Positions 5,148 to 27,346 of a stretch of DNA of 64,000 nucleotides are shown here, one piece after another. The translations under genes were made by a program, and so were the position numbers. The first letter of the stretch is position 1; each line of letters opens with the position of its first letter. The notes under the pieces were generated by a model that searched no databases, was not told the origin of the DNA, and was given only the letters and a program-made list of their open reading frames with translations. The stretch comes from Candidatus Wolfebacteria bacterium RIFCSPLOWO2_01_FULL_47_17b (lineage in GTDB: Bacteria > Patescibacteriota > Minisyncoccia > UBA6257 > JAGOQP01), in the NCBI GenBank assembly GCA_001793865.1, contig MGIS01000023.1:60137-124136 (forward strand). The letters are read 5' to 3'.

Positions 5148-5966
5148 TTATGAAGAAGGCGACGATGTTGCCGTTGGAGATGGAGACAATGAGGGGGATG
5201 GACTTGGAGAAACAAGCGGCGATGGCGATAGTGACGGTGATGGTGCCGGCGACGGTCTTGTTCTCGCCGGAGTAAGCGCTTGTATTGCCTCCCGTACCGC
5301 TTCGCGTGCTTTGTGCACAAGATCGCGGAGTGCTTTCAAGTCACGTGCCATTTGAGACCGCACACCGCCAACGTTATTTCTGAGCTGGTCTTCGCCGGTT
5401 ACGGTAATCTCGTATACCTTGCCGGTCGCGTCGCGTATCGCGGTGCTTGCCTCGTCTATCGTGTCTTGCGCGGCCGCTATGGCTCTGAGGGCCGCGTCTA
5501 CATCCACGCCTTCTTCTTCAAGCGAGTTTGCCCGTTCCACGACTCGATCGAGCACGCCTTGGATCTTACCTATCGCTTGTGATAGGTTTTCCAGGATGCG
5601 CTCATACACCTGCGCGAGCGTTTCGTCCACGCGCTCCACTATCCGCCGTTTCGCCTCGTCTTTAACTGTTTGCAAGCGTTCACGAAGCGTTTGTTTTACT
5701 TCTTCACGCTTTTGCTGAAAGTTTGCCTTTCTCTGATCGAGAGCGGCTTTGAATTCCTCCTTTCTATCCTGGGCCTGCGTCTGGTATTCCAAGCGCCGAG
5801 CCTCAAGCTGCTGTTTGAATTCACTCGTGGCCTGATTTCTTTGGTCGACCATGTTTTGTAAGGCGTCTGTGCGCCTCTGTTGCGTCCGTGCTGGCGTTTG
5901 TGCCAATGCCGGCAGTGCGCTCATTATAAACGCGCCGAGCAGCATAAAAATGACTATTTTCTTCAT
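5148..5966 (-). CDS. Hypothetical secreted coiled-coil protein with C-terminal SPSPS repeats
   Basis: Signal peptide MKKIVIFMLLGAFIMSALPALAQ, long Q/E/R/K heptad-like region, SP-repeat tail. Confidence 0.55.
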   Translation of the reverse strand: MKKIVIFMLLGAFIMSALPALAQTPARTQQRRTDALQNMVDQRNQATSEFKQQLEARRLEYQTQAQDRKEEFKAALDQRKANFQQKREEVKQTLRERLQTVKDEAKRRIVERVDETLAQVYERILENLSQAIGKIQGVLDRVVERANSLEEEGVDVDAALRAIAAAQDTIDEASTAIRDATGKVYEITVTGEDQLRNNVGGVRSQMARDLKALRDLVHKAREAVREAIQALTPARTRPSPAPSPSLSPSPLVSPSPSPSLSPSPTATSSPSS

Positions 5967-6013
5967 AGCTTTAGTATATCACATATGGACAGCTTCCGTG
6001 TGGATGAATTTTG

Positions 6014-6087
6014 GGTGAGCAACGGGGGTTGAACCCGTGGCCTCCAGGGCCACAACCTGGCGCTCTACCAACTGAGCTATGCCCACC
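6014..6087 (-). tRNA. tRNA-His (GTG) with extra 5' G-1
   Basis: GGTGGGCATAGCTCAGTTGGTAGAGCGCCAGGTTGTGGCCCTGGAGGCCACGGGTTCAACCCCCGTTGCTCACC; anticodon loop TTGTGGC; G-1:C73. Confidence 0.85.
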
Positions 6088-6096
6088 ATCTTTACA

Positions 6097-6600
6097 CTAT
6101 TTAATTCCTCGCTTGAGTAATATACGTCTTGTATATCCCCAGTCAAGGCCAACTTTTTTTCCAATCTTCCTATAAGAAGCTCCCTTAAGCCTCATTTCTT
6201 CTGCTATTGATATTTTTCTCTCTAAAACTTTCTTTCGATTTTCTTTTTTAGCAAAATACTCATCGAGGGCTTTTATTGTTTTTTGAGCAATACCCTTTTT
6301 AACTACTAAGAATTTATTTACCCCTTTTATAAAGGAATAAACATCTTCTTGACGAGCAATATAATATATCCAGCTATCTTTCCAGTGCTTTTTTCTTTTT
6401 GTCACTTTGGCAACCTTTCCGAAACCGCAAAAATCCGTGATGTCTTTAAGGACATCCTCGTTCGTCTGTGCTATATAAATTCTAAAACCTTTGCCGTTGT
6501 GACAGATTGAACCTTCTCCATCGAAAAAGCCCGCCACATAGTTCCAGCTCATAGTATACTCAGAATACAGTTTTTGTGTGGCATCGTCAATATTGTCCAC
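6097..6600 (-). CDS. Free-standing single-motif LAGLIDADG homing endonuclease with C-terminal HTH
   Basis: WNYVAGFFDGEGSI motif; C-terminal ASYRKIGKKVGLDWGYTRRIL HTH; AT-rich; stop 10 nt from tRNA-His. Confidence 0.8.
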   Translation of the reverse strand: MDNIDDATQKLYSEYTMSWNYVAGFFDGEGSICHNGKGFRIYIAQTNEDVLKDITDFCGFGKVAKVTKRKKHWKDSWIYYIARQEDVYSFIKGVNKFLVVKKGIAQKTIKALDEYFAKKENRKKVLERKISIAEEMRLKGASYRKIGKKVGLDWGYTRRILLKRGIK

Positions 6601-6622
6601 TTATATTAGATACCACATCCGC

Positions 6623-6889
6623 TTATACCTTATGCACCTTTGCGTTTTCGTGAGATGCCTTGTTCACTTTAATCGCAACCTCATCCCCCTTTTTTCCTTT
6701 CTTTATCTTTTCGTGATCTATTTCCATTGATTCCACTTGCTGGGTGAATTCGCTCTCACCGTGCACAAATTTAACTTCGTCCCCTACCGAAAGCGGTGCC
6801 GAAAGTTTTACCACCGCCACCATCGCCTTGTCAAAGTAATGGATGACTTTTCCTATTTCCTTATCTTTTTTATTTTTACCAAAAAACAT
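6623..6889 (-). CDS. Hypothetical small protein, beta-barrel resembling EF-Tu domain 2 (start probably MFFGKNKK)
   Basis: GKVIHYFDKAMVAVVKLSAPLSVGDEVKF...GDEVAIKV pattern; weak. Confidence 0.4.
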   Translation of the reverse strand: MFFGKNKKDKEIGKVIHYFDKAMVAVVKLSAPLSVGDEVKFVHGESEFTQQVESMEIDHEKIKKGKKGDEVAIKVNKASHENAKVHKV

Positions 6890-7000
6890 ATTTTTTATTT
6901 TTCTTATTTCCGACCTTTCCCAGTATATCAACAACGATTTAATCCTGCGGATTTCAGCCGAAGGCTGAAAATATCGTTGTTGTATTACTGGGTTTCTTGG

Positions 7001-7357
7001 TTATGAATAGAGTAAAATGCCGAGTACGACCAGAAAATTTACTATTAAGAAAAGCCCGTCTCCAACAAGCAAATATTTTTCCTTATGTACAGTCGCGTAT
7101 GTGATTGAGATGATAGAGATGACCAGGTATGATGACCAGGTTGTGAGCGAAAGTCCGCTGATCGCGTGATCCCTCCATACCGTAAGCACTTGCGGAAGGG
7201 AAAAGAGCGGCCCTACCATGCCGGCAAAAAGCACGGTAAAATCGAGCGCTCGAACCCACTTGCTTGGATGCGGGTATTCCTGCAATTTTTGATAGGTTCT
7301 CTTTCTGGTATGCAGATGGTGTATCGCTCCTCCTCTCATTTGGATATTATAGCACAA
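7001..7357 (-). CDS. Small 3-TM membrane protein with PQ-loop motif (SemiSWEET-like)
   Basis: FSLPQVLTVWRDHAISGLSLTTWSSYL matches PQ-loop pattern; ~100 aa. Confidence 0.45.
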   Translation of the reverse strand: MCYNIQMRGGAIHHLHTRKRTYQKLQEYPHPSKWVRALDFTVLFAGMVGPLFSLPQVLTVWRDHAISGLSLTTWSSYLVISIISITYATVHKEKYLLVGDGLFLIVNFLVVLGILLYS

Positions 7358-7487: not shown

Positions 7488-7961
7488 GTGAAGTATAAAT
7501 CAAATTATCCCAAAAAGGGAAAATTTGATTTATGGAAAGTGAAAAGTGATATGGACGGAAAGCTGGAGCAACTTGCCCTACGGATTGAAGAGGAAGAAGA
7601 AAAAGAACTGGTAACGGCGGATATCCTGGATGAAATCCTTCAATTCTCAAAGAATATCTACACCGCCTATATGAAAGCCCCTCACTTCATCAAAAGGCAT
7701 TATCTCGGCTTCTTTTGGGATAAGTTTGAGGTTGTGGACGGAGTTATAATAAAATCCTATCCCTCCCTCCTTTTTCAACAACTTTTGGATATCCAACGGG
7801 CATACATCGAAGCCCTTAAAATCAAGAAACACCCTAAGAACAAGGGTGTTTCTTCGGTTATAATAAACCAGTATCAGTGCTCCCGAAGGGAATCGAACCC
7901 CTATTCTCTCCTTAGAAGGGAGATGTTTTATCCATTAAACTACGGGAGCGAGATGTTTTGA
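7488..7961 (+). CDS. Hypothetical protein; last ~25 codons are antisense of tRNA-Arg so true end/validity uncertain
   Basis: ORF track only; lies inside 494-bp segment bracketed by duplicated tRNA-Arg 3' end. Confidence 0.3.
   Translation: MKYKSNYPKKGKFDLWKVKSDMDGKLEQLALRIEEEEEKELVTADILDEILQFSKNIYTAYMKAPHFIKRHYLGFFWDKFEVVDGVIIKSYPSLLFQQLLDIQRAYIEALKIKKHPKNKGVSSVIINQYQCSRRESNPYSLLRREMFYPLNYGSEMF
7878..7949 (-). tRNA. tRNA-Arg (TCT)
   Basis: GCTCCCGTAGTTTAATGGATAAAACATCTCCCTTCTAAGGAGAGAATAGGGGTTCGATTCCCTTCGGGAGCA. Confidence 0.8.
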
Positions 7962-25616: not shown

Positions 25617-27222
<1,606 letters not shown>

Positions 27223-27346
27223 AAATTAACGATGTCAAAAATTCCAAGCCTTCGACCTAAGTCTTGACTTGAAACTTCTGGCATCTTGCTATCGGGACAA
27301 CTAAAAAAATCTTCAAATTAACACATTTGTGGATGCCCCCAATCTT

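Follow-up and report, generated by a model that had tools for sequence, protein, structure and literature searches.

A 64,000-nucleotide (nt) stretch of the genome of Candidatus Wolfebacteria bacterium RIFCSPLOWO2_01_FULL_47_17b (contig MGIS01000023.1, positions 60,137 to 124,136; the whole stretch is hereafter called the window) carries the gene of a small LAGLIDADG endonuclease directly upstream of tRNA-His(GTG). Comparison with related loci suggested, at a probability of about 0.6, that the two genes belong to a mobile promoter-nuclease-tRNA-His cassette that would insert into the anticodon loop of a resident tRNA-His gene and replace the function of that gene. The evidence consists of the linkage between nuclease and tRNA-His across the family, of broken tRNA-His genes that end at a single nucleotide beside the unit, and of a second nuclease with the same arrangement. 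An initial annotation of the window had proposed that a homing endonuclease gene had invaded a tRNA-proximal site. This proposal held in part, as empty sites and degraded copies were found; however, tRNA-His was not a mere landmark, being coupled to the nuclease gene at 49 of the 50 loci, which came from widely differing Parcubacteria, with its remnants flanking the unit.

Linkage of the Nuclease Family to tRNA-His

A word-indexed protein search retrieved 78 relatives of the nuclease (approximately 147-155 aa), nearly all from Patescibacteria, and an exhaustive profile search of 1.84 billion cluster representatives yielded 56 at E<=1e-30. A larger LAGLIDADG superfamily, with 2,121 representatives at 1e-10, surrounded the family. 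Scanning one genome per species (185,579 species) identified 37 true family loci (L001-L037) in 36 species genomes, indicating that the family is rare. A metagenome scan added 13 family loci, some of which duplicated genome loci; the repeat analysis described below was carried out on 46 non-redundant loci. The locus data throughout were derived from metagenome-assembled genomes (MAGs) and metagenome contigs.

An intact tRNA-His(GTG) gene was located on the same strand, directly 3' of the open reading frame (ORF), in 36 of the 37 genome loci and in 13/13 metagenome loci. The sole unlinked locus, L034, encoded a protein of 40% identity, was labeled Bacillota, and had no tRNA gene nearby. The gap between the ORF and tRNA-His was 2-30 nt in most loci and approximately 90 nt in L093, and in L005, L022, L025, L029, and L032 the ORF overlapped tRNA-His by 10-23 nt, its last residues being encoded by the D-arm. 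The window ORF ended (stop codon TAG, 6099-6097) 10 nt before tRNA-His, as first annotated, which is 9 nt before the encoded G-1 (6087). An intrinsic terminator was usually present 3' of the carried tRNA-His, and a second tRNA gene, most often tRNA-Arg(TCT), was found within 350 nt upstream in 23 of the 37 genome loci; the wider neighborhood of the unit was not conserved across the family.

The unit consisted of the nuclease ORF and the tRNA only, with no recombinase between the tRNA-His remnants. Rfam RF00028 gave no group I intron signal for the window region and none for 10 family loci, but did detect a tRNA-Phe intron 2 kb from the nuclease locus at 77 bits; likewise, an Rfam scan of positions 5800-7100 returned tRNA only, with no intron at the nuclease locus. 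No further copies of the nuclease family occurred elsewhere in the window. Carriage by phages was considered and rejected, as IMG/VR contained only distant LAGLIDADG relatives (<=38% identity) and the family itself was absent. The letters AT or ATG preceding tRNA-His were also discarded as a signature of the element because L065 and L066, two empty sites, also have ATGG before tRNA-His; the ATG before G+1 of tRNA-His is probably RNase P context.

tRNA-His Remnants and the Probable Point of Insertion

A tRNA-His profile was built from the intact genes and run on all loci. As a result, 5' halves of tRNA-His were detected 52-57 nt before the nuclease ATG in L029 (E 4.5e-7), L097 (6.8e-7), L014 (two copies), L019, L033, and L008, and others were recognized by eye in L011, L010, and L006. 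These halves began at ATG G and extended across the D-arm as far as the anticodon, breaking off exactly at GTG-G37. The remnant of L028 extended to the far side of the anticodon stem and was located 102 nt upstream; its extent and position indicate that the inverted repeat found before the nuclease gene belongs to the inserted unit. Remnants of the 3' part, extending from the T-loop to C73-CCA and including the acceptor strand, were located 8-25 nt after the intact tRNA-His in L004, L018, L036, and L093. All four retained the acceptor strand and C73, CCA followed in L004, L036, and L093, and the L093 remnant had a perfect T-stem.

The acceptor sequences of the remnants differed from those of the intact tRNA-His genes. 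The 5' half of L019 was identical to the tRNA-His of L004 at 34 of 39 positions, and its acceptor strand (GGAGATAT) could not pair with the 3' end of its own neighbor (..CGAGCACC). A type-A remnant stood beside an intact tRNA of the GGAG type in L176, a locus of the HNH nuclease described below, and the 3' remnant of L018 resembled the tRNA-His carried by the nuclease sister L021. These unpairable or foreign acceptors indicate that the intact tRNA-His is a complete and different gene, neither a repaired resident nor the copy from which the remnant was derived.

The order of genes in L097 was tRNA-Arg, a tRNA-His 5' half ending in ..TTTGTGG, a promoter with a 169-aa HNH ORF (450-959, extending into the element that follows), another tRNA-His 5' half with the end ..TCTGTGG, the repeat and promoter, the LAGLIDADG gene, and an intact tRNA-His. 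This order implies that an HNH cassette with its own tRNA-His was itself struck at the same nucleotide by a LAGLIDADG cassette. The HNH family comprised at least 304 homologues of 155-175 aa in Parcubacteria, and the HNH protein scored 21 bits against Pfam HNH_3, under the cut-off. tRNA-His abutted or overlapped the end of the HNH ORF in all five sampled loci (L172, L174-L177), and in L172 and L176 a tRNA-His 5' half ending at GTG(G) was present upstream of the HNH gene promoter. Two unrelated nucleases share one architecture and one insertion point.

One type of tRNA-His, with the acceptor GGAGrCAT.., the D-arm GGTGTAG, and the 3' end ..CTCC-C, recurred in distant loci (L004, L018, L027, L036, L095, L101, L175, and L176). 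It occurred either as an intact gene or as a broken remnant (L019, L008), and the three LAGLIDADG genome loci in which a 3' remnant was detected (L004, L018, L036) all had it as their intact tRNA-His.

Motif, Fold, and Active Site of the Nuclease

The description of the protein as a free-standing single-motif LAGLIDADG enzyme with a C-terminal helix-turn-helix (HTH) was confirmed. The frame, which contains YVAGFFDGEGSI, matched Pfam LAGLIDADG_3 at 33.6 bits (cut-off 22.5), and the WhiA-type LAGLIDADG model of Pfam scored 22.2 bits, just below its cut-off of 23.2. In 38 family sequences, Y5, G8, F9, D11, G12, E13, and G14 were invariant. Residues E13, Q29, and K85, which align with D20, Q47, and K98 of I-CreI, were invariant or nearly so throughout the family; a phmmer comparison with I-CreI was marginal (E 0.05-0.3).

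An AlphaFold2 model built on 38 family members had a mean predicted local distance difference test score (pLDDT) of 96.5. In this model, residues 3-79 formed the canonical alpha-beta-beta-alpha-beta-beta-alpha core (H3-13, E14-18, E23-29, H32-42, E46-50, E60-65, H68-79), followed by a 37-residue helix (86-122) and by helices 127-134 and 138-147, which completed the HTH. The best PDB matches obtained with Foldseek were I-CreI, I-CvuI, I-MsoI, and I-Vdi141I (E approximately 2e-6, TM score approximately 0.55, 112-122 columns), and the top 40 PDB matches were all I-CreI-type enzymes. The HTH region gave a weak match to HTH_Cbp1, and the family member P0078 carries Pfam HTH_24, HTH_38, and HTH_7. 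Judged by its motif, profile match, predicted fold, and predicted active-site residues, the window protein is a member of the I-CreI-type LAGLIDADG class, and it is not intron-encoded. Single-motif enzymes of the I-CreI type are homodimers that cleave a pseudo-palindromic site of approximately 22 bp and leave 4-nt 3' overhangs; the window protein is presumably homodimeric, the indirect signs being its single motif and the palindromic GTGG-N31-CCAC repeat at its promoter.

The longest open frame at the locus, which extends from a GTG at 6600 to 6097 on the minus strand and encodes 167 aa, is the one initially annotated, but the gene almost certainly starts at the ATG at 6552 and encodes 151 aa. 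This start is predicted because an identical database protein has 151 aa (P0001, 100% identity; hypothetical protein A2755_02605 of Candidatus Wolfebacteria bacterium RIFCSPHIGHO2_01_FULL_48_22), because all homologues in the 38-sequence alignment start at an equivalent MxW, and because the promoter falls within the stretch by which the longer frame exceeds 151 aa. The ORF starts independently, from a promoter of its own, and does not continue the reading frame of any host protein.

Promoter and Inverted Repeat

The loci shared the upstream layout GTGG-N29-32 (mostly N31)-CCAC(A)-N8-10-TGnTAnAAT-N8-10-ATG. Of the 46 non-redundant loci, 41 had an inverted repeat of the form GTG[GA]-N28-33-[CT]CAC no more than 95 nt from the ATG, compared with a mean of 0.47 and a maximum of 3 in shuffled sequences. 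The arms of the repeat covaried, GTGA being paired with TCAC in 5/7 cases and GTGG with TCAC in 3/34, and both extended to a GTGGWTA-like half-site. We infer from these sequences that the repeat is the binding site of the dimeric protein, with the core at the middle of the site and the HTH domains on the arms, and that it would serve autoregulation. In the window, the -10 box is located 9 nt before the ATG, suggesting that the nuclease mRNA is nearly leaderless.

The upstream arm was identical with the GTG-G37 end of the tRNA-His 5' half in L019, L014, L011, L029, L033, and L097, and in the window this GTGG arm (6616-6613, minus strand) was the only trace of the broken tRNA-His anticodon loop. 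The spacing GTGG(34-37)-N30/31-NCAC(69-72) within tRNA-His equals that of the putative operator; this match may reflect mimicry, descent of the operator from the 3' half of the tRNA, or chance.

A promoter-like TTGACT-16-TATATT was located approximately 30 nt 5' of tRNA-His, within the codons of the conserved C-terminal DWGYTRRIL, and may be a second promoter for tRNA-His. The same internal element occurred only in L001, L002, L003, and L026, that is, in the window's own clade and L026. An ORF-embedded tRNA-His promoter was rejected as a family-wide feature, as one was found in 10 of 36 loci compared with 4.1 in shuffles.

Distribution, Composition, and Selection

The check suggested in the initial annotation, presence or absence of the gene among relatives, was carried out with GyrB as the host marker. 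L002 and L003 (GyrB 78% and 80% to the window, respectively) were occupied and had the same order as the window, nuclease, tRNA-His, and gyrB. In contrast, L065 (GyrB 84%; tRNA-Phe, 45 nt, tRNA-His) and L066 (GyrB 81%; tRNA-Arg, 96 nt, tRNA-His, gyrB) had neither a nuclease gene nor a scar. Carriers and non-carriers were interleaved on a GyrB neighbor-joining tree, in which only three to four carriers had the host marker, and the neighbor-joining tree of the nuclease was star-like and poorly resolved. The ORF was intact and under purifying selection in the window, and the unit was located upstream of gyrB in two related genomes as well. Degraded copies also occurred, with one frameshift in L035, two in L037, and a deletion of residues 67-103 in L036.

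In the closest GyrB relative, L063 (86.5%), the contig ended 180 nt upstream of the orthologue of a 272-aa gene, where the window has tRNA-His and the nuclease gene; this assembly break may reflect strain variation at the site.

The nuclease gene was AT-rich, as had been noted from the sequence, with a GC content of 0.36 and a GC content at third codon positions (GC3) of 0.33, compared with 0.48 +/- 0.03 for the long ORFs of the window. The GC3 was approximately 0.5 for the host and 0.46-0.56 for the neighbors of the gene, and that of the gene equaled the value of an intein in GyrB (0.32), likewise a mobile element. The ratio of nonsynonymous to synonymous substitution rates (dN/dS) was 0.05-0.09 in homologue pairs without synonymous saturation.

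Proposed Mechanism and Alternative Explanations

The proposed cassette would consist of its own promoter with a palindromic operator, the nuclease gene, a complete tRNA-His(GTG), and usually a terminator, and would move among Parcubacteria, which belong to the candidate phyla radiation (CPR). Its landing site would be the anticodon loop of the resident tRNA-His, with the 5' junction exactly after G37; the resident gene would be destroyed, the carried tRNA-His would take over, and the old halves would decay on either side. The protein would cut tRNA-His genes, probably in the anticodon arm, the stem of which forms a natural palindrome in the DNA, as would suit a homodimer. G34-G37 would then be the central four bases, and the top-strand break would fall at 37/38. 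The protein may also repress its own promoter by way of the GTGG/CCAC arms. One transcript would contain both the nuclease mRNA and the tRNA, which RNase P would separate; as the tRNA has the nuclease ORF for its 5' leader, this cleavage would form the 3' end of the mRNA. At loci with the stop codon within the tRNA, the cleaved message would lack a stop, and nuclease levels would stay low as a result. The cassette may spread by double-strand-break repair after DNA uptake. The window retains only the GTGG arm of the old tRNA-His, suggesting that the insertion is old here.

A wider interpretation, which we offer tentatively, is that the unit is a natural "cleave-and-replace" element. The nuclease would destroy the single essential tRNA-His of the cell at the anticodon loop and rescue the cell with the carried tRNA-His, and the element would be hard to lose because the nuclease gene is at once the 5' leader and the promoter region of the tRNA. 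LAGLIDADG and HNH nucleases would have converged on this arrangement and would overwrite each other, and this turnover would drive the unusually wide range of tRNA-His sequence types seen in Parcubacteria.

Several observations weigh against a mobile cassette. No feature conferring immunity was found in the carried tRNA-His, the anticodon loop of which is the same as that of the victims. The 3' remnants have weak E values (0.1 to 5), and 5' and 3' remnants were never found together in any one locus. The tRNA-His types carried, with an ordinary D-arm, a GGTGTAG D-arm, or a GGAG acceptor, were scattered over the star-like nuclease tree, implying that nuclease and tRNA do not simply co-diverge. 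As all loci are from MAGs or metagenome contigs, the frameshifts could be assembly errors. The tRNAs of these organisms diverge fast, with identities between the window and L065 of 61-85% for other tRNAs and 74% for tRNA-His, and a foreign origin of the window tRNA-His is undemonstrable by identity. Finally, strong purifying selection and the position shared by the window, L002, and L003 would also fit a gene useful to the host. Immunity through a lost CCAC half-site at 69-72 was considered and proved unsupported, as [CT]CAC is kept in 23 of 36 carried tRNAs; co-divergence of nuclease and carried tRNA was likewise not seen on a crude neighbor-joining tree. The scattering of tRNA types could possibly result from re-assortment of modules, from conversion of the carried gene, or from remnants travelling as homology arms.

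The nuclease could instead be a free-standing homing endonuclease that merely resides beside the resident tRNA-His, as in the "intronless homing" of the phage T4 seg and mob genes. It would cut nuclease-free alleles in or near tRNA-His and be copied in by repair; the downstream tRNA would mostly be that of the host, and the 5' halves would be by-products of imprecise repair or partial duplication. The same linkage data fit this explanation, as do the empty sites, the lack of a 3' remnant at most loci, and the finding that the carried tRNA type does not follow the nuclease tree. However, it leaves unaccounted for the well-preserved 5' halves of L019 and L176, which are unpairable with the 3' end of the intact tRNA, it does not predict the 3' remnants of L004, L018, L036, and L093, and L097 shows a once-complete carried tRNA that was broken in turn; we regard it as unlikely. 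In a different explanation, the protein is a domesticated LAGLIDADG-HTH DNA-binding protein, a kind of half WhiA, that regulates the tRNA-His operon; an early ancestor of the Parcubacteria would have passed it on by vertical descent, and most lineages would since have lost it. The low dN/dS, the conserved palindromic putative operator overlapping the promoter that drives the tRNA, the near-threshold score of the WhiA-type model, and the position common to the window, L002, and L003 are all consistent with such a role. Universal presence at the locus with conserved synteny had initially been named as the mark of a domesticated gene, and the data have this appearance only superficially: linkage between nuclease and tRNA-His is universal in the family, but the family is rare, wider synteny is absent, and carriers are interleaved on the GyrB tree. 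Moreover, the metal-binding acid and the Lys and Gln of active enzymes are invariant, unlike in WhiA, and domestication accords poorly with an extremely patchy family interleaved with empty sites in close relatives, the flanking tRNA-His halves of foreign type, an unrelated HNH nuclease in the same niche, the deviant composition, and the pseudogenized copies. Such a regulator is quite improbable.

The other initial suggestion, a leftover of a lost intron, supposes that a group I intron once occupied the anticodon loop of tRNA-His and that its ORF survived the loss of the ribozyme. As a description of the present state, this was not supported, as no group I signal was found in the window region or in the 10 family loci, an intact and uninterrupted tRNA-His lies 3' of the ORF, and the 55 nt upstream and 2-30 nt downstream of the ORF leave no space for a ribozyme core. 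As an origin, it is reasonable because the break falls in the anticodon loop, the site that group I introns occupy in bacterial tRNA genes. The tRNA-Phe of the same window cluster carries a group I intron, and Patescibacteria have many tRNA-borne group I introns, some with HNH genes (PMC13011429). An intron remnant would thus be a story of origin only, and as an explanation of the loci it is very improbable.

Comparison with Known Systems

Homing endonucleases normally need a self-splicing intron or an intein for harmless insertion into essential genes, and the genes of I-CreI-type enzymes lie within group I or archaeal introns in rRNA genes. The window protein resembles I-CreI, I-CvuI, I-MsoI, and I-Vdi141I in its single LAGLIDADG motif, its length of approximately 150 aa, its core, and the conserved acid, Gln, and Lys; unlike these enzymes, it is free-standing, has a 37-residue helix and an HTH appended, possesses its own promoter and putative operator, and is tied to a tRNA gene. 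WhiA is a broadly and vertically conserved transcription factor, a monomer with two LAGLIDADG domains that lack the catalytic residues and a C-terminal HTH. The window protein shares this scaffold and the C-terminal HTH, whereas it has one domain, retains the catalytic residues, and is patchily distributed. Islands and prophages that bear tyrosine or serine recombinases use tRNA genes as integration sites and restore the interrupted gene, duplicating no more than its 3' end, and synthetic "cleave-and-rescue" gene drives are engineered to target an essential gene and to supply a functional copy of it. The unit would share the logic of both, in that an essential gene is disrupted or targeted and a working copy is supplied, leaving a viable host and an element that is hard to lose; it differs from the islands in having no integrase. 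We know of no natural version of cleave-and-rescue that involves a homing endonuclease and a tRNA.

The closest systems by logic are the mobile endonuclease ORFs (mORFs) of fungal mitochondria, found in atp6 of Allomyces macrogynus and in atp6, atp9, cox2, and nad3 of Glomus, in which a LAGLIDADG or GIY-YIG ORF is transferred along with a foreign version of the gene part that it displaces (PMC3630166). The native piece stays adjacent as a decaying duplicate, and the inserted and native parts differ in phylogenetic affinity (PMC3630166). The loci analyzed here showed the same combination of a foreign copy that is carried and a native part left as a duplicate, as the acceptor stem of the intact tRNA-His differs from those of the flanking remnants. 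However, mORFs reside in mitochondria and in protein-coding genes, of which only the C-terminal part, located upstream of the ORF and often in frame with it, is replaced (PMC3630166), whereas the unit of the window type is located on a bacterial chromosome, the break in the tRNA gene falls in the anticodon loop, and a complete gene is provided downstream, with the ORF as its 5' leader. The free-standing nucleases of T4-like phages are also intergenic, cut a nearby conserved gene, and are co-converted with flanking markers, and T4 SegB acts in a tRNA gene region (PMC2988022, PMC13096335). In contrast to the unit, they are GIY-YIG or HNH enzymes of phage genomes, their target gene is not invaded or destroyed, and they are not fixed to one tRNA species. 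The group I introns that lie within Patescibacteria tRNA genes occur in the same phylum and in the anticodon loop of tRNAs with a GUN anticodon, and a few carry HNH genes; they differ in that they splice, so that no replacement gene is needed, and neither tRNA-His nor LAGLIDADG was reported there (PMC13011429).

Full-text searches within one literature library revealed no account of the nuclease-tRNA-His unit. If the proposed cassette is real, it would offer an alternative to the intron and the intein, namely an element supplied with a replacement for the gene that it disrupts. The cassette would also be the equivalent, in bacteria and for an RNA gene, of the fungal mORFs and a natural analogue of the engineered cleave-and-rescue drives, and an essential tRNA gene of many CPR bacteria would have to be regarded as repeatedly exchanged mobile DNA. 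The loci present a concrete and testable example of gene flow among bacteria whose genomes are tiny and which are not known to conjugate. The protein may also serve as a compact LAGLIDADG-HTH scaffold with a likely site of 35-40 bp. For annotation, the tRNA-His "halves" in these genomes should be read as scars and not as split genes.

Layout of the Window Locus and Minor Observations

The features of the locus are listed in Table 1. G-1 and C73 of the window tRNA-His were read directly from the sequence.

Table 1: Features of the nuclease-tRNA-His locus and its surroundings in the window.
Feature	Position	Strand	Basis or remark
tRNA-Arg(TCT)	7949-7877	minus	
118-aa SemiSWEET-like membrane protein	7357-7001	minus	
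88/103-aa small protein	6889/6934-6623	minus	flanking gene
Inverted repeat GTGG-N31-CCAC	6578..6616	no strand	brackets -35; putative operator of the dimeric protein
Sigma-70-type promoter	6562..6590	minus	-35 TTGACG 6590-6585, 17 nt, -10 TATTCT 6567-6562
LAGLIDADG-HTH endonuclease gene, 151 aa + stop	6097..6552	minus	ORF, Pfam, homologue starts, AlphaFold, Foldseek
LAGLIDADG motif YVAGFFDGEG, aa 5-14	6511..6540	minus	E13 = I-CreI D20
C-terminal helix-turn-helix, aa ~116-147	6112..6207	minus	AlphaFold2 secondary structure, conserved YRxIGKxLxxDxGYARRL
Promoter-like TTGACT-16-TATATT inside ORF 3' end	6119..6146	minus	10/12 sigma-70 match
9-nt spacer, stop codon to G-1 (TGTAAAGAT)	6088..6096	minus	
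tRNA-His(GTG) with genome-encoded G-1 (6087)	6013..6087	minus	ARAGORN (6013..6086), Rfam tRNA 66.8 bits
Secreted coiled-coil protein	5966-5148	minus	
89-aa protein between coiled-coil gene and gyrB		minus	
gyrB	4794-1558	minus	

The small gene upstream of the nuclease had been annotated as an equally AT-rich orphan of 103 aa resembling domain 2 of EF-Tu. It most likely starts at the ATG at 6889 and encodes 88 aa, and its stop codon abuts the GTGG arm. Its GC3 of 0.46 is normal for the window, and the label of orphan did not hold either, as L004 has a homologue of 46% identity in the same place; no homologue was present upstream of the nuclease at the other family loci. The resemblance of this small barrel-like protein to domain 2 of EF-Tu/EF-1alpha is present, but at 17.7 bits it is sub-threshold, below every curated cut-off (30.3). 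The gene is an ordinary flanking host gene and not part of the unit.

The window gyrB contains an intein at approximately aa 446-871, which matched Pfam Intein_splicing at 82 bits and has a GC3 of 0.32 compared with 0.56 for the extein. The HNH-like insert of the intein scored 23.5 bits against HNH_3, slightly below the cut-off, and the intein is absent from the 120 closest GyrB homologues (639-707 aa). A 157-aa ORF on the plus strand (7488-7961) overlaps tRNA-Arg(TCT), and its C-terminal matches in L016, L003, and L028 fall within tRNA-Arg coordinates; it is probably not a gene. rRNA genes of CPR bacteria often carry LAGLIDADG-encoding insertions; the 16S rRNA gene of the window (25672-27228, minus strand) is full-length, at 1,557 nt, without a large insertion. 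A tRNA-Phe(GAA) gene missed by ARAGORN is located at 8436-8729 on the minus strand, in the same tRNA cluster as the nuclease-tRNA-His unit, and is split by a 240-nt group I intron without an ORF (approximately 8464-8703; RF00028, 77.3 bits). This intron lies just 5' of the anticodon, the 5' exon ending in ..GCGCATCCCT and the sequence after the intron resuming with GAAGAGGATG...

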